Assembly: GCA_964016885.1 (NCBI GenBank)
Contig: OZ024740.1
Span: 408,022,001-408,086,000, forward strand
DNA from: Eledone cirrhosa
Lineage: Eukaryota
DNA length: 64,000 bases
Direction: 5' to 3'
The translations under genes were made by a program, and so were the position numbers. The notes beneath the pieces are model-generated. The model searched no databases, was not told the DNA's origin, and saw only the letters and a program-made list of their open reading frames with translations. Of this stretch, positions 1 through 64,000 are shown in pieces. The first letter of the stretch is position 1. The number at the start of each line of letters is the position of its first letter.

Positions 1-267
1 TTTGAGTTTTAGGATGGTTAGAATTTTTGAAATTGATACCTGTATGTATAACTTTTCAATTCCAATTCCTTGTACAAAGCTAACTTTGATTTGTAAAACT
101 GGAGGGGGGAGGGGGTGCTGTGTATTCTAATTATGTATGTGGGACCCCCCAAGGTCTAGTCCAAAATTTCACTGTCAATGACTTTTTACCTTGTAGCATG
201 ATATATGTTTACAAGCAGCACAAAATATGATTAGTTAGCTTTATAGTGAGGAATTCAACAGCTAAGA

Positions 268-10260: not shown

Positions 10261-10773
10261 TTTTTGTTCATTCAGGAAAACTATAGCAAGTAGAGTTCGG
10301 TGCCAACAAGATATGACAATGAAAGTAGTATGATGAACTTGTGGCCATGTGATCAGTAGTCCAGACTCTTAACTTCACAGTAAAAAATTGTTGTTAAAGT
10401 CACAGAAGCCATTTAAAACAGTGTTACATTCATGTTTTGTTTTTCTTTGTAGTTTAGTATGTTACAAACAACAACACAACAATCATTTTAACTCTTTCAA
10501 TATTATATTTCCAATGAAAGATACTGTCAATGATTCTCAAATAATTTCGAAAATAATCAGGAATTCAAAGGGATCTTAGTACTATAACAACCTTTATCAT
10601 TATTAAGCTGGTGTTTGGAATATAACTTAACAAATGTTCTTATATAGAATTATGATGGAAGGTTCTTAGATAAATATAAACATTAAAAAAAAAACAGTTT
10701 TGTATCATAGAACCATGGGTGGTTTCAGGCAGTTTAGTATCAAAAGAGTTAAGTCCATTTTCCCTAACTATAG

Positions 10774-11960
10774 AAAGGGTCTTAAAGTCAACCTGACAAA
10801 GACTAAGGTCCTTGTAAGTAGACTAGAAAACAGAACCCAGATCCCCTCAGGGAAATGGCCTTGCTCAGTATGTAGGAAAGGTGTAGGTAGGAACTCCATT
10901 CTCTGCCCCAAATGCAAACAATGGGTACACAAGAGATGTAGCGGGATCTCAGGAAGCTTAATTAAGAATGTAGGCTTCACATGTAGCAGCTGTGCTGGGA
11001 CAGCAAGCAGAAAACAGCCACAGGAAACAAGTACCACCAATCTCTGGGAGGGCTCTGTAGAAACAGTAGACAGCTTCTGCTACCTAGGTGACCGAATTAG
11101 CAGCGGAGGTGGGTGTTCAGAAAGTACAATAACTAGGGTAAGAACGGGTAGGAAAGATGTTCAGGGAACCACTGCTAACTGCAAAAGGCTTTTCCCTCAA
11201 AATGAAAGGCAAACTGTATGATGCGTGTATCCGAACAGCAATGTTACATGGTAGTGAGACCTGGGCGCTGAAGGTGGAAGACTTACGTAGATTAGAAAGA
11301 AACGAAGCCTGCATGCTCCAATGGATGTGTAATAGTAATATACGCAAATGGCAAAGCATAAATGAATTGAGAGAGAGACTGAGCATAAGAGGAATCAAAT
11401 GCGGTGTGCAGGAGAGGCAGTTGTGTTGGTATGGACATGTGATGCGTATGAAGGATGACAGCTGCATAAAAAGGTGCAGAGCACTAGAAGTCAATGGAAA
11501 CCGCGGAGTGAGGAGACCCAAGAAGACCCGGGATGAGGTGATAAAAGCCGACCTTACCCAATTACACCTCTCAAAGACGATGACACACGACTGTGACCTC
11601 TGGCGTCACGCAGTAATACAGAGTACCCGACCTCCCATGGGTACAAGCTGAAGCATATAGACAAATATGCCCCCACACCCTCTTACTGCAAAGTGGTCGT
11701 GGAGCTGCCACGGCAAAAAAGCACCCAGCCCACACTGTAAAGTGGACGTGTAGGCACCATGGAAAAAAAGCACCCAGCACTCACTGTAAATGAGGTTGGT
11801 GTTAGGAAGGGCATCCAGCTGTAGAAATCAAGCCAAAATCAGTTCCTGTATGAGCAAGGCATGGTCAACCGACCAGACACTGCCCACAACAGGACAACTC
11901 GTCTAACCCATGCTAGCATGGAAGAATGGACGTAAAACGGTGATGATGATGATGATGATG
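10774..11960 (+). mobile_element. 5'-truncated RTE LINE (RT C-terminus, 3' UTR, (GAT)n tail)
   Basis: KGLKVNLTKTK...FCYLGD...MLHGSETW...WYGHVMRM...RPKKT; one frameshift. Confidence 0.9.
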
Positions 11961-23212: not shown

Positions 23213-23607
23213 GACTTCTGCTATACCATTTACGTGGTTTTGTCTTTGCGTGCTATTGTTCTCTACGTTCCACATATGACGTATTATCTTCGTTTTTTCG
23301 TTCATTGCCAGAGAACGCCTCTATGCACCACCTAAGAGAACATTAGTCTACGACCTCTTTTATACCATAAACGTGGTTCTGTCTTTGCGCGTAATTGTTT
23401 TTCACCGCTCCTATTAATGACGTATTATTCCTTTTTTCCCGTTCTTTGCCAGCGAATGTTACCACGAACCAAAGTATCGTCTTCCTCCGGTTGCAACGTT
23501 TTTTGAAATATCCAGTTCTGCGTTTACAGATTGACTTTGTTAGTTTCAGAAGATCCCGTTAAGGGCGAAAGCAGCGATTCTTTGCTTAAACTTTAATCTG
23601 TTATTTA

Positions 23608-23612
<5 letters not shown>
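23213..23612 (+). mobile_element. Non-autonomous Helitron internal fragment with two ~140-bp subrepeats
   Basis: CACGAACCAAAGTATCGTCTTCC and GATCCCGTTAAGG...GCTTAAAC are shared with the Helitron at 32606-33366. Confidence 0.6.
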
Positions 23613-23657
<45 letters not shown>

Positions 23658-23751
23658 TAAATAACAGATTAAAGTTTAAGCAAAGAATCGCTGCTTTCGC
23701 CCTTAACGGGATCTTCTGAAACTAACAAAGTCAATCTGTAAACGCAGAACT

Positions 23752-23813
<62 letters not shown>

Positions 23814-25894: not shown

Positions 25895-26451
25895 TGCAAT
25901 GAAGAGGCGGATTTTTAGGTCTTTACGAAGGTCCGTCTTCCACACCGATCTCAAGCTGTGGCACGCCGCCCAGGCTTTGCTCTTCCTCTCAACCACATCA
26001 TCTTCCGTATTCCCAATCTTTGCTCCCAAAGATTGTAGTGGAGTCTGTGCTGCTGTACGGGTCTGAGACTTGGACACTGACCAAGAAACTCACTCAGATG
26101 GTGGATGGGTGCTACACGAGAATGCTGAGGATGGCTCTGAACATTAATCAGTATACACTGAGGATGAAAATCTCAGAGCTGTATGGGAGCCTCCCAAAAG
26201 TCAGCTCAAAAGTGACACAGAGGAGACTGAGGTTAGCTGGACATGCTCACCGACATCCAGAGTTGACATTGCACTCAGTGCGCCTGTGGGAGCCCCTACA
26301 TGGACACACTGGAAGAGGAAGACCAAGGTTAACGTATGTTGATGCCCTAAGGACAGACGCTGGTCTGTTGGAGACGCAGGACATGGCAGCGATAATGAGG
26401 GACAGAGACCGCTGGAGAGAACTCGTCCATGGATCTCGCCAATTTTACCCG

Positions 26452-26455
<4 letters not shown>
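25892..26455 (+). mobile_element. RTE-type LINE 3' fragment with an inverted 5' segment, inside (TA)n
   Basis: Minus strand 26030-25892 encodes LGAKIGNTEDDVVERKSKAW...KIRLFIA; plus strand continues VESVLLYGSETW...LAGHAHRH...GRPRLTY. Confidence 0.9.
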
Positions 26456-26497
<42 letters not shown>

Positions 26498-26635
26498 ATG
26501 CTTTGGGAGGGTCATGTTGCCAATAAGAAATACACGTGTATTTCTTATTGGCAACATGACCCTCCCAAAGCATAACAATATCGGTTTCAACACACGTTTT
26601 CAGATAAAGAATCTTGCTAAACAAATTCAGAAACG

Positions 26636-26682
<47 letters not shown>

Positions 26683-26850
26683 AAAGTTCTATTTAAATTG
26701 TTGGGATACAACAAGCAAATATTTTTATAACTGATATAAAGCACTCGACAAGTATTTGGAGTAAATACACTATCCCTGATGTCTTCCAAAAGTAACGGTT
26801 GCATTTTGAAAGGGTATGTCAATATTTATTTATAAAACTGGTATATATTG

Positions 26851-26915
26851 TATTTTGTCTGATGAAAGCATACCGTAATTTAACATGGTATCCTTGAAAT
26901 ATGTATAATAAAATA
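26851..26915 (+). ncRNA. Minimal type I hammerhead ribozyme motif (AUA triplet)
   Basis: TATTTTGT-CTGATGA-AAGCATACCGT/ATGGTATCCTT-GAAA-TATGT-ATA-ATAAAATA; 8-bp stem I, 10 of 11 bp in stem II. Confidence 0.8.
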
Positions 26916-26954
26916 GATATGGTTTTATAAATATAGTTTCCATTTGTTAATATC

Positions 26955-27004
<50 letters not shown>

Positions 27005-27476
27005 ACAAATATATATATGTGTGTATACAGTTTCCATCTACCAAATTCCACTCACAGAGCATCTGTCAACTCGAAGCTCTAGTAGCAGTCACCTGCCCCA
27101 AGTGCAACTCCTTAACCACACAGCCATGGCTAACAGCATTGGTTGTTTTGAAAGGACTCTATTAAGTCAGTCAGTTGCTGCCTGTTGACTGTATTTGATG
27201 ATGACATTTAACATTGGCTAAGAAACATCAAATATAAATAAAGTTCAGAACGATTTATCATTCTAAGAAACGACACTGACACTCAGATTTATTATTAATT
27301 GGAAGTTTCCTTTACCAACCCCTCCTTGAAATCTATAGATATAACAACGATCTCGTTACTTTTTCTTATAATACAAACAACAGAAAAAACAACACATTTC
27401 AATTAACACTTCATTTACCGTATTTCTAATAAAGGATACTGCCTATGATTTTCAAATACTTTCAATAATAATAATG

Positions 27477-27932
27477 AAATTATTGTGTACAGTGCTCAGG
27501 TGCACTACAACTCATCAAAGGTGCATGTATAGTACATAGAATAATTGTTTCTACTTTTGGCATAAGGCCAGTAATTATCCCAGTACGTTACTGGTACTTT
27601 ATTTTATCGACCCCGTAAGGATGAAAGGCAAAGTTAACCTTGGCGGGATTTGAACTCAGGACGTAAAGGGACGTATCTATGCTGTAAAGCATGGCGTCCG
27701 ACCCTCTACCGATACTGCCAATTCACCGCCCTGACAAATGTTAGGAAAATGAACAGTGTACGAGTCATGATATACATGTGTGCGTGTGTATGGGGGGGGG
27801 GGATCAAATGTAGTGTTGGCGAATCTCAGGAATCATAGAGGTTTTAAAGGATGCAGTGTCTCGACAGCTAACAACTGATGCAGGTATTTTGTTCCTTGCT
27901 TCAGCAACTCTGAGCGTGAAAAAATGTTTCGA
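27477..27932 (-). mobile_element. CR1 LINE 3' end with a SINE A insertion (27540-27731)
   Basis: Closely matches 9626-10105. Confidence 0.85.
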
Positions 27933-28794
27933 AAATAATCAAGAATTTTGAGCGATTTAGTAATGTAACTTTCCCATTATTAAGTTGGTGTCTGGAACGT
28001 AACTTAACAATGGTTCTCACATAGATTTTGATGAAAGTTTTTTTGTTTTTTTTTAGATAAATATAAATACTTAAAAACAGATCTGTGGCTTAGAATAATT
28101 TGGGTTGAAAAGATGCACCTTTCACCCATATAGTCGGTCGCAAAGCCTGGTAATTGTAGTTCATCATTCACTCTTGCCAAAGGGAGTTATCCAACCTGCT
28201 AGATAAAGGAGCTAAACGACCCTTAAACAAAACATAATAATAGGGGTAGAAGTTGCAACCAATAGTGCTCTCACAAAAGGAACACTATTTCGTCGCTAAA
28301 GGAACTGCTTAAAAAAAAACGGTTTAGCTATACGATGTTTGAGAGAGAAAAAATAGACAGGATGGTGGAGGATGGAATGTCCTTGATTGTATTCTGTGCG
28401 GTTGGGGCTGACTTGGAGTTAAGCATCAAAAACAAACTTCGTATTATCTTTGAATAATGGATGGCCAGTGGCGGACTGGCCAAGTTGCCCAATGACAAGT
28501 GGGCTCCAGGGGAACAACGGTAGTATTGCAGAGCCCACTATAGTATTTTAGGGGCCATTGCTTTGCTTTCAAAAAATACCTGCAGTCTAAGAGAAAGAAT
28601 AAATAAAAAACTAAAAAAAACAAAAACAATTAAGCAAAGCATTTGGTCAACCAATTCCCCACGGAATTAATAGAAAGCAAGATATATGACAGTGCAAATA
28701 GCTGGAATCAGCGGTTGTACATTCTACTGAATCTAAAACTTAGTGTATTCAGTCTTGCATGCAAACATACATATATAGACACACACACACACAA

Positions 28795-28839
<45 letters not shown>

Positions 28840-28913
28840 TATATATATATAAAAGATGTAGACTGAACACTTTCTTGTTAACAAGTTGTTTTAGGCCTCA
28901 TATCATGTTACAT

Positions 28914-28983
28914 TATTTTATCTGATGAGAACACAATTTTTGTCCCAGGATAATATTGTTTTTGAAATGCGCATAATAAAATA
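28914..28983 (+). ncRNA. Minimal type I hammerhead ribozyme motif (AUA triplet, palindromic stem III TGCGCA)
   Basis: TATTTTAT-CTGATGA-GAACACAAT...ATTGTTTTT-GAAA-TGCGC-ATA-ATAAAATA. Confidence 0.8.
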
Positions 28984-29320
28984 TAGAACTTTTTTTAACC
29001 ATCTTTTAATTTCTTCTTTAATATATACTCCAGTTCTACCAATTGTTGAGTGCTACTTATCTGATATATGCATAGTTTTATTGTTCTACAATATTACTCA
29101 CCTTCTACACACACACACATATATATATATATATTTTTATTTTATAGAAGGAGCTTCCTGTAGAAGCTCCTTCTATAAAATAAAAAATAAAATTTTTTTA
29201 CTCTGCCATGTATTGAGTACCTTACTTACTGTGGTTATCCCCGACTCAACCCGGGACCTACGTATATATATATATATCAATGATATTAATAAATGGAAAC
29301 TATATTTATAAAACCATATT

Positions 29321-29381
29321 TATTCTATTATATATATTTCAAGGGTACCAAAACTTTGGTACGCTCTAATCAGATAAAATA
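29321..29381 (-). ncRNA. Hammerhead ribozyme motif with a mutated core (CTGATTA)
   Basis: Minus strand: TATTTTAT-CTGATTA-GAGCGTACCAAA/TTTGGTACCCTT-GAAA-TATAT-ATA-ATAGAATA; host unit 29278-29540 is homologous to 26680-26955. Confidence 0.7.
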
Positions 29382-29558
29382 CAGAGCTTGTTTTATAAAT
29401 ATTGACATATCCAGGAATGAGACCTTAACGGTCCAAGTTTTACCTGACTATCCAGAAACTTGTCGAGTGCTTAGAAACTGTTATAAATATATATATTTGT
29501 TGAATTACCAACAAATTAAATATCCCTTTGCTTATATATATAAATGAAAATAGAGAAA

Positions 29559-29700
29559 TTAATTGTTTCTACTTTAGGCACAAGGCCATCAATTACCCAG
29601 TACATTACTGGTACTTTATTTTATCGACCCGTAAGGATGAAAGGCAAAATCAACCTCGGCGGGATTTGAACTCAGATCGTAAAGGGACGTAACTATACTG
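29559..29700 (-). mobile_element. SINE family A, 5'-truncated
   Basis: Core and tail match. Confidence 0.85.
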
Positions 29701-32605: not shown

Positions 32606-33366
32606 CTAGCAGAATGGCCCGGCGTTGCTCGGGATTTGCTATAGGGTTCTTATATATTTGATATATATTTATCCTTATCGAACCTCGTGAAATAAATACG
32701 TTTGTTTATATTTTGTTATTGTGTATGCAAAAATATCTGTCCATAAATATATAATTATATATATATATTAAAATAACAGACTAAAGTTTAAGCAAAGAAT
32801 CACTGCTTTCACCCTTAACGGGATATTCTACCTAAAAGCAGTATGAAGTACATACACTAAGACTAATTGATGTAATCTTTGGTCTTGTTTGTTTACATTT
32901 TGTTTTTGTGTATGCAAAAATATCTGTACACGAATATCTATATTAAAATAACATATTAATGTTTAAGCAAAGAATCGCTGCTTTCAACCTTAACGGGATC
33001 TTCTGAAACTAAAAAAATCAATCTAGAAAACAGGAAGACGATACTTTGGTTCGTGAAGACGTTCCCTGGCATAAGAATATGTATACACACACACACTGAT
33101 CGCGTCATAATGACGTAATGCAGACAGTCAGGCATACAGACAGATATTATGAAGGCGCGACGTCATATCTATGTATCTATCTAAAAAGAGAAAGACTAAA
33201 TCGCCTAATGCGGTCCCTAGGGCATTGAAAATTTGAAATTTGTTTTGCTCAAAACACTTCCGGGGTCATACGAGTTACATGTATAAAGTTTGAAAAAAAC
33301 CGGTTGGGTACTTCTCGAGTTTTAGGGAAACAGACACACAGACATCCTCTGTTTTATATATATAGA
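32606..33366 (-). mobile_element. Non-autonomous Helitron, complete
   Basis: Minus strand starts TCTATATATATAAAACAGAG and ends CCCGAGCAACGCCGGG hairpin...CTGCTAG|T. Confidence 0.8.
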
Positions 33367-33402
33367 CTAGCAGAAAACCACGCGTGGGCGGTTTTCTGCT
33401 AG

Positions 33403-33716
33403 TCTATATATCTAAAACAGAGAATGTCTGTCTGCCTGTCTGTCAGCTCACTAAAACTTGAGAACCACCCAACCGATTGTTTTCAAACTTTACACATGTA
33501 ATACTTAGGGTCCTGTGAGTGTTTTGAGCAAAAATATTTCAAATTTTCAATGCTCTAGGGACCGCATTAGGCGATTTAGCGATCTCTCTCTATAAGTCTT
33601 AGTCTTTCTTTTTAGATAGATACATAGATATAACGTTGCGCCCTTATAATATCTGTCTGTATGTCTGGCTGTCTGCATTACGTCATTATGACGCGATCAG
33701 TGTGTATATATATGTA
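33403..33716 (+). mobile_element. Helitron 5' part, inverted paralog of 33080-33366
   Basis: Starts TCTATATATCTAAAACAGAG; aligns with the reverse complement of the left copy, with substitutions and indels. Confidence 0.75.
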
Positions 33717-39118: not shown

Positions 39119-41590
39119 GAAGTTTATGAAACGGAAATGCGGGTATAAAGAATTTATTAGGTAACAATTGTTTCTATAGTGTATGGGTTACCTATACCTC
39201 GCTATTTGAATAATATAAAAATATTATCATAAACCGAAGGTACACTGCAAGCAAACACACCATGTCGTCAGACCTTTGTATTGGAATGATATGAAAATAT
39301 TTGATACACTAGATAAAAGAGAAAGAAGGAGGAGAGGGAAATGAGTAAGGGGGAGGGAGTCCTAGGATTTAAGACTGTCAGACTAGTAGAGATTGTAAGG
39401 AGAGAATGTTTTGGCAGCAGTTAGCTTAATGAGGCGTGTTAGGGTTGGCGGGGGAAGTAAATTCTTCTAGTGGTGTTGTTCGGACAAAATTTAGTTAAAG
39501 GGGTCAAAGTGGTAGAGAGTTACAGACAAGTTATTGGGGCTATTATAGTAGCAGGTTATTTCTAAAGGGGTCCAGAAAACAGTGTTTAGTACTATTATTA
39601 TAGAAAGCCATATCTTGTGTATAAACATATAAAACAGAAATTTGCAAACAGTGGTGTAAAAAAGTAACATATGCATTTAAAAAAAGAAAAAGTCGTTTTC
39701 AAACGATGGTTACAGTATAGTGAACGTTCAATTTTGCTGTTCAAAAGTTTGTTTACCGATGTTAAAATGCAGTATATCTCCAAATTGCATAATTTGCAGA
39801 ATCGATGATTTTGCTTATATGCAGGCGCAGCTGCAAAAATTTGCCAATCAAGGGAGAATGCTTGATTGTTCCTCCGGAGCTGCCAGGCTTTATCGGCGAG
39901 GGTTGTTACGGAGCGCATTTTCTCGTGCTTGATCGAAGATCGATGTTGGTATAGGCGAGCTTTGAAAGAAGTTGTGGTACATTCGACGTAATACCATTTG
40001 TTGGTTCCGGAATTTATTGTACATCGGTAGACAATATTGCGTGCTAGGCACTGGTTATTCAGTGGGCACGTACCTAGTTTGGTGCAGTTACAATTATTTT
40101 TATGTTTTGCAGTAGAATCCTGGATAGTTTGGTGGGGTTGTAGTTGCGTGTTAGTGCATTGTATGTTGCTATGCTGGTGCGCTGAGTCATTAGGGATGTA
40201 CTTATTTAGTATTGCTGAGTTGAGTTTTTTAATTAGTTGCTCTATGTTAGGTGCAGTGGAGTATGAGAGTCTAATGGTGCGCTAGTTAAAGATTTTATAG
40301 TATTTATGTGAAGTTGTAAAGTGTTTATTGATTAGTGTATAGAATTGTGAGATAATCTTAGTGCTAATAGAAATATTGTACTCGGGGTTATACCATATGT
40401 ACTCTCTACGTCTGACTCTATTTGCTGGTTTGCACCTATTAGTATGCCTATTGATGTGTGTGTGTGTGGTGCAATACTAGTTCGACTTAGATGTGTTTTA
40501 TTCATAGTACTTATGTGGTTATCGTCTAGATATTCTATTTTCTCGCATAACCAGCTTTTCTAAGTGCGTCATTATAATATTCAGCATGCTCGTTGAAGGT
40601 CTGCAAATTAGACGACAGTCGGGAGATCCTTATGGATATATTTTTAGGGATAGATTTAATAATGGAATGGGGATGGTTCGATTTTACATTAACGTACTTG
40701 AGATTTTCATTAAGTTTGTGAAATGGCTCTATATTACCATTATTAAGGTTGAAGGTGACATCCAAGAAGTTGACCACCTTAAGATTGTGTTCGAAGGTAA
40801 TATTAAGCCCTAGTTCTAAGAAAAGTTTCCTAATGTTTTTACGTCGCCTTTCTAGGTTTTGTTTGTTCATATTCTTGACTAATAGAAGTGTATCGTCGCG
40901 GTATATTCCTCCGTGGAGGTCCGTAAATTCGCTCTGGAGTCTGTGGGCTATATAGATCCCAACCAGATCCGTGACCTCCGCCGAATCATTAGAACCCATC
41001 GTAATGTCGAATTCCGAGGGTCTATCTCTGCGGACCCAATAACTATTTTCAAAGTGCACTACTGTGCGTCTAGCTTCAAGTATAATATTAATTTCCTCGT
41101 TTGTGAGGTCCGAGTTAGTCTTAGCGAATGAGAGGGCCTTATGCAGGGTTTCGGGTGAAATAGAGGAATAGTATTCATCTATATCGAATTGAATAAAAGA
41201 AGATTTGTTCTTGTCCCTAATGTTATTGAACCATCTTATTGCCTGTTGAATATTACCCCATAATTTAATATCTACCTTAGCCTTAACTTGGGGGATAATG
41301 CGATCTAATATGTACTTACTGATTCTACCTATATCGGACTTTGAAGGACATATTAATCTAATTTTAGGGTTAGTATCGAAGTTATCCTTATGGTCCTTCA
41401 GATTAAAAGTCGGTGTAGCTGGAGATAGGGGTACCGTTCTGTCGTCAATTTTCAGTTTCTTAACAATATCACATGCTGCGTTATTAATGTTGGTTAGTGT
41501 AGTTGCGTTTGTTTTTTTGTACTTCCTATGTAATTCCTTACGTATAAAATTATTATATGTTTCTACATCAAGGGTGTATAGATTCGATGT
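39119..41590 (-). mobile_element. 5'-truncated Penelope-like retroelement (RT plus C-terminal GIY-YIG endonuclease)
   Basis: RT motifs LKDHK, RLICP, FDIDEYYSSI, TMGS, YRDD, NFLDV, SNHP; downstream WYNPEY, CNCTKLGTCPLNNQC, IVYRC...YYV, CKLCNLE; few stops; both ends abut GA/TA microsatellites. Confidence 0.9.
39159..39275 (-). ncRNA. Hammerhead ribozyme motif with a 90-nt stem II in the PLE 3' terminal region
   Basis: Minus strand: AGGT-CTGACGA-[90-nt hairpin]-GAAA-CAATT-GTT-ACCT; palindromic AACAATTGTT. Confidence 0.65.
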
Positions 41591-42132
41591 ATAGAGAGAG
41601 AGAGAGAGAGAATTATTAACAAAGCCCCGGCCTATGTCTTGCTCACTCAGTAATGAATCTGCCAAGTTGTAGTAATGCAACTGCAACCAGCATTTCAGAG
41701 TGCACACATTTTAGTTTATAGCAGGTAGGGTGGTGTCTGTGTTTTGGTAATATATATATTCATCATCATCATATACCAAGGACATGGCATCTTCCCTTGT
41801 GGTGGTGCCATGATAAAATGCACATAGTCTGTGACAGCATGCCCAACCCTAGTCAGGAAAACAGATGTTAAACAATGATGATGATATTTGTAAATCTAAA
41901 TGAGATGATATTTAAGGCACCAATTTAAGTAAAAAGCTATACTTGTAATACTTTTTACTCATTGTATTTTATCTTTAGATTTTATTTTTCCTAATTTTAA
42001 ATGGTTGTGTATATAGAAATTTATATTTTTTAGAGGGCTGTACTATGTCACTGTCCTTGAAGAACTCAGTCTGCAATTTGTTTTCAATTCCCACAAACAT
42101 CATTTACACAATGGAGAAATACATGGGTATCA

Positions 42133-43647: not shown

Positions 43648-43693
43648 ATTAGCCAACAATGTTTCGTCATATTAAGGACTCATCAGGGCAATT
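43648..43693 (-). ncRNA. Minimal type I hammerhead ribozyme motif
   Basis: Minus strand: AATTGCC-CTGATGA-GTC CTTAATAT GAC-GAAA-CATT-GTT-GGCTAAT; about 140 nt from (TA)n. Confidence 0.75.
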
Positions 43694-45620: not shown

Positions 45621-45721
45621 ATCTATATTTTCTCTACGGGCTTATATATGCTTATATATATATATATATACATATATATATACACAATCCTTATTGAGTC
45701 CTTTTCGGATTTTGATCTTTA

Positions 45722-45819
45722 AATGGCTTCTCCGGGACTAGAACTATTTCATTCATATGAAATCATCAGGAATGCCCTGATAATTTCATACGAATGAAAC
45801 AGTTCCTGTAGAAGCCATT
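45722..45819. ncRNA. Head-to-head inverted pair of degenerate hammerhead motifs
   Basis: Plus: CTGATAA-TTTCATACGAAT-GAAA-CAG TTC CTG-TA-GAAGCC; minus: GGCATTC-CTGATGA-TTTCATATGAAT-GAAA...GAAGCC. Confidence 0.55.
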
Positions 45820-45828
45820 CCTGCATTA

Positions 45829-46020
45829 AATAATTGTTTCTACTTTTGGCACAAGGCCACCAATTACCCAGTAGATTACTGGTACTTTATTTTATCGACC
45901 CCATAAGGATGAAAGGCAAAGTTAACTTCGGCGGGATTTGAACTCAGAATGGCAAGGGCCGTAACTCTATACGTCAAAGCATGGCGTCCGACCTTCTACC
46001 GATACTGCCAATTCACTGCC
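45829..46020 (-). mobile_element. SINE family A
   Basis: Full length; TTAAATAAT duplication. Confidence 0.85.
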
Positions 46021-51900: not shown

Positions 51901-52960
51901 CATCATCATCATCATTTTACGTCCGCTTTTCCCTGCTTGGAAGGGTTGGACAGGTCCTATTCAGCATCTCTCCACTTGTCACGGTCCTTCGTCATCTCCT
52001 CGGTGAGTTTCAGCGATATGAGGTTTGCTCTCACCACCTCTGCCCATGTTTTTCGTGGTCTTCCTCTACTGCATCTTCCCTCCACTGGGACTTCCTGGCA
52101 CTTCTTTACCCAGCGGTCATCCTCCATGCGCATCACATGTCCATACCATCTCAGCCTTTTCTCCCGCACACCACAACTTATCCCTCTTATACCCAGTTTC
52201 TTTCTCAACTCGTCTATGCTTGTTGGTCATTCACGCACATTGGCATTGTACATCCAATGGAGCATACTTGCTTCATTTCTCTCCAGCCATCACATATCTT
52301 CTGCAGTTGCTGCCCATGTCTCACTACCATGTAGCATCGGGCATCTCACACAGGCATCATATAACCGTCCTTTCATACGCAGGGAAAAACCCTTCTTTGT
52401 CAACAGAGGAAGCAGCTCTCTAAACTTCTTCCAACCCGTCCTTATTCTAGATACTATGGCCTCGGAACACCCCCCTCCCATGCTAATCTGATTACCTAGG
52501 TACCGGAAGCTATCCATCACTTCTATAGAACCCACCTGCATTGGAAAAATGTGTCTATCACTGTGATTACTACTGCCAACTTTCCCTGTACATCTACTGC
52601 ATACGTAGTTTTCCCTACCTGTTAGTTTGCCTGCTATCCGACTACATCTCTTGTGTACCCAAGATCTGCATTGCGTACATTTTATGGAATTTATGCCAGT
52701 TCCTTTCCTACATATCAAACATGGCCATTTCCCTGATGGAATCAGAGTATTGTCCTCTCTTCTACTTATCAACACTTTTGTCTTAGCTATGTTCACTCTC
52801 AGGCCTCTTGATTCCAACTGCTGTTTCCATAGCCAGAATTTATTCTCTAGCTCCTCTACTGATTCTGCTATAAGAACCAGATCATCAGCATAGGGAAGTT
52901 CCCATGGGCAGCCAGTCTTAAACTCCTCTGTTATGGCTTAGAGGACTATAATGAACAAAA
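51901..52960 (-). mobile_element. 5'-truncated RTE LINE
   Basis: GCPWELPYADDL...SGKWPCLIC...HGSETW...RLRWYGHV...RGRPRKTW; (GAT)n tail. Confidence 0.9.
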
Positions 52961-62396: not shown

Positions 62397-63028
62397 ATAA
62401 TTCTATGTAAGGCGGCAAATTGGCAAAGTCATTATGACGTCGGATAGAATGCTTTACGGTATTCGTCCCACCTCATTGCACACTCTAAATTCAAATCCCT
62501 CCATGGTCAACTTTGCCTTATATCCTTTCACTGTCGATAGAAAGGCACCAGTCCAGTACTGGGGCTGATTCTTCCTCTATAGAAAAAATCGGCTGTGTTC
62601 AGACCTGCAGAGGGTTGGGCTCTGCCAAGTTTAAAAGTGCCCTAGACATGCCATATGACAGTGCCTCTATGACTCTACAAGGAGTTATGGATAATTCTAT
62701 GTATAGGAATTGCCTGACACGGTCCGTCTAACTTGCAAGACATGCATGCTCTTGGTGGCGCATCATGCAAATTTGACAATTTCAAGCATTTGCATCATCA
62801 TCATCATCATCATCGTCACACCGTTTAACGTCCATTTCTCCACACTAGCATGGGTTAGACGAGTTGTCCTGTTGTGAGTATTGTTAGGTCAGGTGATCAT
62901 TTCTTGCTCATACAGAACTGATTCTATATATTCATACATACACACACACTCTCTCTCTTTCTCTCGCACACACACAGACACGCATATGTTTATATATAAA
63001 CAGAAACACAGTAACTAGAATAAGAAGA

Positions 63029-64000
63029 GGATGGAAGAAGTTTAGATAGCTATTAACCCTGTTGACAATAAAAAGGGTAGTAGCTAGGATGGAAGAAGTT
63101 TAGATAGCTATTAACCCTGTTGACAATAAAAGGGGTAGTAGCTAGGATGGAAGAAGTTTAGATAGCTATTAACCCTGTTGACAATAAAAAGGGTAGTAGC
63201 TAGGATGGAAGAAGTTTAGATAGCTATTAACCCTGTTGACAATAAAAAGGGTAGTAGCTAGGATGGAAGAAGTTTAGATAGCTATTAACCCTGTTGACAA
63301 TAAAAAGGGTAGTAGCTAGGATGGAAGAAGTTTAGATAGCTATTAACCCTGTTGACAATAAAAAGGGTAGTAGCTAGGATGGAAGAAGTTTAGATAGCTA
63401 TTAACCCTGTTGACAATAAAAAGGGTAGTAGCTAGGATGGAAGAAGTTTAGATAGCTATTAACCCTGTTGACAATAAAAAGGGTAGTAGTTAAGATGGAA
63501 GAAGTTTAGATAGCTATTAACCCTGTTGACAATAAAAGGTGTAGTAGCTAGGATGGAAGAAGTTTAGATAGCTATTAACCCTGTTGACAATAAAAAGGGT
63601 AGTAGTTAAGATGGAAGAAGTTTAGATAGCTATTAACCCTGTTGACAATAAAAGGTGTAGTAGCTAGGATGGAAGAAGTTTAGATAGCTATTAACCCTGT
63701 TGACAATAAAAAGGGTAGTAGCTAGGATGGAAGAAGTTTAGATAGCTATTAACCCTGTTGACAATAAAAAGGGTAGTAGTTAAGATGGAAGAAGTTTAGA
63801 TAGCTATTAACCCTGTTGACAATAAAAGGGGTAGTAGCTAGGATGGAAGAAGTTTAGATAGCTATTAACCCTGTTGACAATAAAAGGGGTAGTAGCTAGG
63901 ATGGAAGAAGTTTAGATAGCTATTAACCCTGTTGACAATAAAAAGGGGTAGTAGCTAGGATGGAAGAAGTTTAGATAGCTATTAACCCTGTTGACAATAA
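63029..64000 (+). repeat. 58-bp tandem satellite, about 17 units, runs off the window
   Basis: Unit GGATGGAAGAAGTTTAGATAGCTATTAACCCTGTTGACAATAAAAAGGGTAGTAGCTA. Confidence 0.97.

Follow-up and report, generated by a model that had tools for sequence, protein, structure and literature searches.

The 64,000-nt stretch of the Eledone cirrhosa genome analyzed here (the window; GenBank assembly GCA_964016885.1, contig OZ024740.1, positions 408,022,001 to 408,086,000, forward strand) contains three type I hammerhead ribozyme (HHR) motifs, at 26851-26915 (+), 28914-28983 (+), and 29321-29381 (-), with ends adjoining TA/CA runs. In all three, stem I measures 8 bp, stem II is paired, and the string GAAA-T-N4-A-TA is present. 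We consider it very probable that they are the pseudo-long terminal repeat (pLTR) ribozymes of 5'-truncated copies from three families of Penelope-like elements (PLEs) that possess open reading frames (ORFs) and Hydra-clade signatures, and that self-cleavage after the AUA triplet would occur only as dimers or with protein help. The features of the three insertions are given below. Offsets with a plus sign count from the predicted scissile bond, inner and outer denote two recurrent 3' end sites, and names beginning with L are genomic loci used for comparison.

26638..26679, no strand: (TA)n target tract flanking insertion 1 on the left (tandem-repeat content)
26680..26773 (-): inverted arm of insertion 1, matching the family A 3' tail in reverse complement, outer end (about +139); 94-96% to the sense tail of L177, L242, and L244
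26768..26955 (+): sense arm of insertion 1, a 5'-truncated family A 3' untranslated region (UTR) with HHR, inner end (+48); 96% to L177 and 87% to full-length L241 and L242
26851..26915 (+): motif 1, type I HHR of family A, intact core at 26859, AUA triplet; H17 at 26907, predicted cleavage after it (structural descriptor)
26956..27018, no strand: (TA)n target tract flanking insertion 1 on the right (tandem-repeat content)
28796..28851, no strand: (TA)n tract left of insertion 2 (tandem-repeat content)
28856..29108 (+): insertion 2, a 5'-truncated family B 3' end, outer end (about +132), followed by (CA)n(TA)n; 95% to L033 and 81% to L099
28914..28983 (+): motif 2, type I HHR of family B, intact core at 28922, palindrome ATGCGCAT; H17 at 28975, predicted cleavage after it (structural descriptor)
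29269..29450 (-): sense arm of insertion 3, from a third family with an A-related HHR region, inner end (about +59); 92-95% to 30 loci
29321..29381 (-): motif 3, type I HHR with a G8-to-U lesion (CTGATTA), core at 29373, likely inactive; H17 at 29329, predicted site after it (descriptor and family comparison)
29451..29531 (+): inverted arm of insertion 3, the element's own tail, outer end (about +142) (alignment to family copies)

A structural descriptor finds exactly these three motifs in the whole window and none in any of 200 dinucleotide shuffles, in line with the initial annotation of this DNA, which had proposed three; as the descriptor was designed after the motifs had been seen, the shuffle control is biased in their favor. 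Motifs 1 and 2 possess the CUGANGA and GAAA cores, three helices, and an NUH triplet. Motif 3 fails at G8, which is why a literal pattern caught only two of the three, and the CTGATGA box once ascribed to all of them belongs to the first two. The 30 loci of its family nearest to it yielded 27 parsed cores (three loci were unparsed), and because 24 of these read CTGATGA and only three differ, we regard the damage to motif 3 as a private lesion. It is likely inactive by analogy with the green anole element of Frangieh et al. (2024, PMC11167929), for which a G8C change is reported to abolish cleavage. The fourth pair of stem II does contain a C in each motif, as annotated, but its partner differs (C.C in motifs 1 and 3, C.U in motif 2). 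Stem III, described earlier as palindromic or nearly so, is indeed self-complementary in all three and comprises 2 bp and a 4-nt palindromic loop. The label "minimal" had to be dropped: PLE minimal hammerheads, in the definition given by Cervera and de la Pena (2014, PMC4209133), have a stem I of 4-5 bp and no stem III. Our motifs resemble those ribozymes, as that paper presents them, in pLTR location, dispersed truncated copies, dimer architecture, and opposite-strand pairs 100-700 bp apart, and differ from them in the 8-bp stem I, the 2-bp stem III with its 4-nt palindromic loop, and the AUA triplet. An Rfam search of the window returned no hammerhead match at E<=1.

The insertions that hold the motifs are of two kinds. 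Units 1 and 3 can be aligned over their full length, and unit 2 shares mainly the ribozyme with them. Bases 1-94 of unit 1 match, in reverse complement and at 94-96%, the tail found downstream of the ribozyme in longer copies, and unit 3 has the same two-arm layout. Nearly all of the best 30 genomic matches to unit 1 have both ends in common and lie in (TA)n, with arm junctions that vary among copies (no junction string occurs more than three times in the 28 parsed). Units 1 and 3 thus appear fixed-ended because each is an inversion insertion, composed of a short sense arm and an inverted tail of ~90 nt. Unit 2 is a 5'-truncated stub: 14 of its 30 best loci share upstream sequence in the same sense, three of them up to the edge of the 1.5-kb flank, and several others bear an inverted partial copy. 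The 4-8 bases at the left edge of insertion 2 may be a vestigial inverted inner-site arm, and are too short for proof. The units of ~250-280 bp that had been described as bounded by TA/CA do adjoin such runs, but they are not discrete elements.

In other copies, all three motif sequences extend 5' through a 3' UTR of 1-1.8 kb into an ORF with a GIY-YIG endonuclease (EN). Families A and B have the layout pLTR(HHR), tail, 5' UTR, a single ORF (715-760 aa) with reverse transcriptase (RT) and GIY-YIG, long 3' UTR, and HHR, with the HHR ~180 nt upstream of the start codon. Walking 5' in family A leads through ~1.5-1.8 kb of 3' UTR into the EN, and in L242 a 743-codon open frame lies between HHRs at 2549 and 6846 (4297 from HHR to HHR). 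The longer loci of unit 2 (family B) likewise lead into a GIY-YIG ORF, and related loci contain RT+EN frames of 713-760 codons together with the same hammerhead ~1 kb downstream. L099, from a sister subfamily 81% identical to unit 2, shows the pLTR-ORF-pLTR layout, a 618-bp direct repeat flanking a 715-codon frame (~3670 from HHR to HHR), and the pLTR-type copy L033 (95% to unit 2) has the same tail-to-5'-UTR join. In the five copies measured, the two pLTRs of an insertion share 95-99% identity and span 130-620 bp. For the third family, seven of 30 loci lead into a same-sense EN ORF located ~1.2 kb upstream, and its EN is 45-56% identical to that of family A in the six best-aligned of the seven. 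The A and B proteins are ~48-54% identical to each other, and the best named protein relative comes from Argonauta hians (39%). As each motif traces to its own ORF-bearing element, we conclude that three separate families have a common ribozyme design, in place of the single family first assumed; what survives of that assumption is the description of Penelope-related type I HHRs that lie in (TA)n, cleave by prediction after AUA, and have a palindromic stem III of the dimer type. Four further loci (L127, L137, L210, and L211; group C) have an AUA hammerhead of this design as well, and their copies end at the two corresponding sites (+50-59 and +146).

At the level of sequence motifs, these elements carry the signatures of the Hydra clade, which Craig et al. 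(2021; section 11 and the supplement of PMC8557442) define by RWK, DKT, CxCx5C, no CCHH, CxxC/CxH close to the conserved E and N, (TA)n insertion, and an HHR. We scanned four ORFs from families A and B and assigned the clade from these signatures. Both families have a single ORF, with RT (YRDD) followed by C-terminal GIY-YIG (Y(V/F/L)GST) in frames of 743-760 codons, and a CxCx5C linker precedes the EN (CNCRNKSNC, CNCPVRTKC). SDKTN, with DKT in place of DKG, occurs in all four ORFs; RIRWR or RLRWI, which retains RW and replaces K, occurs in three of the four open frames and upstream of the open frame in L099. The scanned ORFs further contain CxxC (CDLC or CNLC) and CxH (CRH or CLH) toward the C-terminus, the EN lacks CCHH as judged by eye, and the HHR lies near the 3' end and in the pLTR. 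These traits, together with (TA)n insertion, pLTRs, and inverted 5'-truncated copies, are shared with the published clade, Hydra-1_Obim included. The differences lie in the ribozyme and the size: the Hydra HHR rows of File S2 all have an AC...GU-H stem III (GUA, GUU, or GUC), whereas ours read AU...AU-A; the HHR of Hydra-1_Obim differs from the AUA form; stem II is longer here, with a fixed C.C/C.U mismatch; and units of 3.7-4.3 kb with 3' UTRs of 1-1.8 kb compare with 2.0-3.0 kb for the listed Hydra elements. Nine HHR or 3'-end strings of 10-15 nt gave no HHR match in the supplement, where line breaks may hide one. A Naiad origin was considered for the (TA)n preference and the widely spaced core halves that our elements share with octopus Naiads (Naiad_Ovul, flagged "HHR_half_core"); it was ruled out, as Naiads have an N-terminal endonuclease and the EN here is C-terminal. 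The label Nematis for the CNC..CPL motif proved wrong, since the supplement of PMC8557442 assigns that motif to Hydra. Elsewhere in the window, a small hammerhead-like motif at 43662-43686 (-), with a 3-bp stem II, stem I GCC/GGC, and a GUU triplet, resembles the listed Hydra HHRs, and decayed motifs of another HHR family form an inverted pair at 45712-45830, with intact GUA-triplet copies in L018 and L044.

We gathered 248 copies of the ribozyme, a set skewed toward close homologs, with a tolerant pattern that allowed at most one core mismatch. CTGATGA is intact in 224 of them and UA stands at 16.1/17 in 241. The main stem III variants (TGCGCA in 109, TATGTA in 76, TATATA in 28) are all self-complementary, and the stem III octamer remains so when its two central bases, pairable only between molecules, are included. 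Of the 138 distinct stem II sequences, 111-135 keep each of pairs 1-3 and 5-9; at pair 4, 125 have C.C or C.U and two form a pair. The stem opens with A-U or G-U in 96. An alignment of 20 motifs picked by hand from the 248 shows two-sided change at six of seven scored stem II pairs, 97.4% of its 380 scored cells are paired (34-62% in slid controls), and no shuffle of 500 reached its covariation score. Compensatory pairing is present in stem II and in one stem III pair, among few independent lineages. The hammerhead fold is predicted to be more favorable in a dimer than in two monomers for motif 1 (-21.2 vs -9.6 kcal/mol), motif 2 (-14.5 vs +5.4), and motif 3 (-26.2 vs -13.6). The palindromic stem III and this modeled preference fit the dimer model set out in PMC4209133 and PMC6765202.

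We determined where insertions end in 98 motifs sampled by chromosome position and selected by the presence of their 3' half. Most 3' ends, whichever of the three motif groups they belong to, fall at +32..60 or +122..147 from the scissile bond, giving an inner and an outer site ~90 nt apart, both downstream of the HHR. Among 133 arms, 62 are inner, 65 outer, and six other, and a TA or CA run lies within 25 nt of 114 of the 127 inner and outer ends, which bears out the proposed (TA)n targeting. The 36 divergent pairs include 32 that combine one inner with one outer end, one with two outer ends, and three with an unclassified end (32/33 vs an expectation of 50%, p=4e-9). In pLTR copies both sites are UA-rich, with the contexts CG|TATAT and GC|ATATA in family A and CT|TATAT and CC|TACATTA in family B. 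The gap between arms measures 106-132 nt in 9 of 16 pairs from family B; joining is thus favored at one point, which partly explains the uniform size of the stubs.

Extending an exact pattern over the scissile bond gave 6250, 6055, and 5927 matches in one B subfamily, compared to 5946 expected from mutation alone for the last. The step across the bond lost 128 of 6055 matches vs 109 expected, so that the share of that subfamily's copies ending at the bond is well below 1%, and in view of this lack of a clear excess we take the template to have been, in all likelihood, either uncut or religated. The paired ends suggest that copying probably begins, in every insertion event, from two fixed positions of a single RNA. 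We propose that the element's endonuclease would cut both strands of a (TA)n tract, and that the freed TA-ending strands would both pair with UA-rich parts of a single template RNA, one strand at the inner and the other at the outer site. The paired strands would prime reverse transcription, a form of twin priming helped by TA microhomology. A head-to-head junction of the two cDNAs would follow, in many cases early and at favored positions. Early joining would leave stubs of ~250-280 bp that resemble a short element. The template would be unbroken over the scissile bond, the simplest such RNA being a read-through transcript that was left uncut, and the ribozyme may act at another step, for example by resolving tandem transcripts into units of ~3.7-4.3 kb.

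Much of this scheme has a counterpart in the anole element, Poseidon_Ac (PAc). The PAc report describes two internal RT start sites, with cutting and extension of both strands, and an HHR that is protein-assisted and dispensable for insertion; unprocessed RNA was the dominant substrate, with no reads ending at the HHR site. PAc and our elements would share two start sites that define a "tail", the use of both target strands, an HHR upstream of the start sites, and, by our interpretation, an uncut template. They differ in tail length (~90 nt here, 30-40 in PAc), in start sites that resemble the (TA)n target here and not in PAc, and in the HHR, which overlaps the start codon in PAc.

The initial annotation instead took the units for a short non-autonomous HHR element, retrozyme-like or a solo pLTR, mobilized in trans, with the window's PLE at 39.6-41.7 kb as one candidate. 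The shared ends and (TA)n setting of the best matches to unit 1 speak for such an element, non-LTR retrozymes have been reported as PLE pLTR derivatives, monomers included (bioRxiv 10.64898/2026.07.22.740005), and remobilization of transcribed stubs is possible in principle. We nevertheless consider it very improbable: the common "5' end" is the inverted outer 3' end, junction strings vary, a tail-to-head junction pattern gives 11 matches vs 5 in the control with a TA spacer in only two, and a single same-strand neighbor pair within 600 bp, joining different subfamilies, was seen among the 133 arms. A family A mini-circle with a TA spacer was ruled out by the inverted tail and the near-background tandem junctions. 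Retrozymes are described as tandem non-coding HHR repeats (PMC7229834; bioRxiv 10.64898/2026.07.22.740005). Here we find neither head-to-tail repeats of ~200-400 nt with an HHR each nor a non-coding unit separate from an ORF, and because tandems are near background and the sequences run directly into ORFs, the label is inapplicable. With the non-LTR retrozymes presented by Cervera and de la Pena (2020, PMC7229834) and Li et al. (bioRxiv 2026), the units share a type I HHR with a short palindromic stem III, dispersed pieces of a few hundred bp, and a PLE connection; unlike those, they show no head-to-tail arrays, no fixed monomer, and continuity with an ORF. The window PLE, at 39598-41710 (-), belongs to a fourth Hydra-type family, with a 391-codon RT frame and a 227-codon EN frame (CNCx5C) separated by a break; neither frame had a Pfam match. 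It is an unlikely driver, being only ~50% (RT) and 32-34% (EN) identical to the family A and B proteins.

Two further explanations concern what the ribozyme does. It is improbable, in our judgment, that the hammerhead cleaves poorly or has lost its activity and is retained as a platform that binds the element's protein or as part of the pLTR promoter. After purification, AUA is reported to be slower than GUC and the slowest of four triplets (PMC1636495), stem I is AU-only, stem II commonly opens with A-U or G-U, and the insertion ends show no clear trace of cleavage; however, the same paper records AUA as a natural, active triplet in three plant RNA hammerheads, and the core boxes, U16.1/H17, helix register, and stem III palindrome are conserved although the family proteins are only ~50% identical. 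The other explanation keeps the same elements and makes their template a ribozyme-cut, religated circular RNA of unit length, on which RT from two internal sites would run around the circle and yield pLTRs and partial tandems. Continuity over the scissile bond is also expected from a circle, the nearly identical paired pLTRs and the mostly intact core agree with it, and animal retrozymes have circular intermediates according to PMC7229834. We hold it to be possible, if on the unlikely side, because an uncut read-through transcript accounts for the same data in fewer steps and the PAc report points to unprocessed RNA. A more ambitious version, an undescribed and massively amplified lineage of long Hydra-clade elements with obligate twin priming, in which both cut target strands would anneal at two dedicated UA sites ~90 nt apart on an RNA circle made by an AUA-cleaving dimeric HHR, in which the C-pyrimidine mismatch would be a protein or tertiary contact, is speculative and we think it doubtful. 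If true, tens of thousands of insertions would directly record a rolling-circle and inversion mechanism of Penelope.

The reading we prefer, truncated copies of three Hydra-signature families copied from two internal sites, has its own difficulties. The third family is traced to its EN end only, the likeness to Hydra-1_Obim was judged by eye from published text at the motif level, and the units are larger than described Hydra elements, given as generally <3 kb. For the ribozyme, the covariation alignment was hand-picked, its count of pairs with two-sided change was equalled by 67 of 500 shuffles, and stem I shows wobble changes only, with no two-sided change; the covariation amounts to few independent events, since it rests on few related subfamilies. 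The HHR fold was never the predicted minimum-energy structure, as monomer or dimer, for any of the three motifs. For the mechanism, 183 loci picked by homology gave 99 pairs with 49 inner+outer, four outer+outer, and 46 with an unclassified end; UA-rich stretches are common in such AT-rich RNA; the scissile-bond test, confined to a single B subfamily, leaves a small excess of 19 (0.3%, about 1.9 sd); and initiation in the anole element is reported to use sites without homology to the DNA that is cut.

Published work already covers Hydra elements, one from an octopus among them, with their HHRs and their targeting of (TA)n, and our elements are new families with a new ribozyme variant inside a known clade. 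In the literature, with Repbase, Dfam, and Lunse et al. 2017 outside the search, we found no description of a hammerhead that combines an AUA triplet, a long stem II with covariation, and a fixed C-pyrimidine mismatch, nor, with Repbase and Dfam outside it, of the 3.7-4.3-kb units and the inner/outer end rule. The main text of a 2026 Octopus vulgaris repeat paper (PMC13282606; supplement outside the search) counts Penelope-like elements and mentions neither hammerhead nor Hydra. On the formation of PLE tails and inverted structures and the role of the ribozyme, we found one in vitro study. These families offer thousands of young copies that follow a near-strict one-inner/one-outer rule, point to starts in UA-rich sequence, and show no break of the template where cleavage is predicted, together with near-intact ORFs usable for biochemistry. 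The AUA hammerhead with a long stem II widens the PLE ribozyme repertoire; Rfam missed it in the window, and its core spacing exceeds the 7-17 nt range of one published core search. A caution also follows, as top-match searches make inversion stubs resemble a fixed-length non-autonomous family.

Pattern searches over the 3.0-Gb genome returned 66,129 matches to an intact core with 24-38 nt spacing (control 5) and 56,991 exact matches to the motif 3' half (control 5). Two random 10-kb stretches (L117 and L118) held no family motif. At C20:3.5-5.3 Mb and C27:13-15.4 Mb of this genome (G000), many near-identical family A copies recur at intervals of ~100-300 kb and are probably passengers of a large segmental repeat. 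A short interspersed element (SINE)-like abundant repeat, presumably one familiar from octopus genomes, occupies window positions ~27543-27735, ~29560-29700, and ~45830-46000 and also interrupts family B 3' UTRs. Near-perfect inverted repeats at 23520-23760, 26492-26579, 29136-29184, and 33343-33426, the first three in or beside (TA)n, account for spurious Rfam microRNA matches in the window and may be inversion stubs of other TA-targeting families. The window also contains fragments resembling the reverse transcriptase of long interspersed elements at 25903-26526 (+), 10670-11651 (+), and 52290-52937 (-), the last with weak RVT_1 and PHD matches, and a 58-bp tandem repeat at 63028-64000 (16.8 copies, 97% matches) that continues past the window end.

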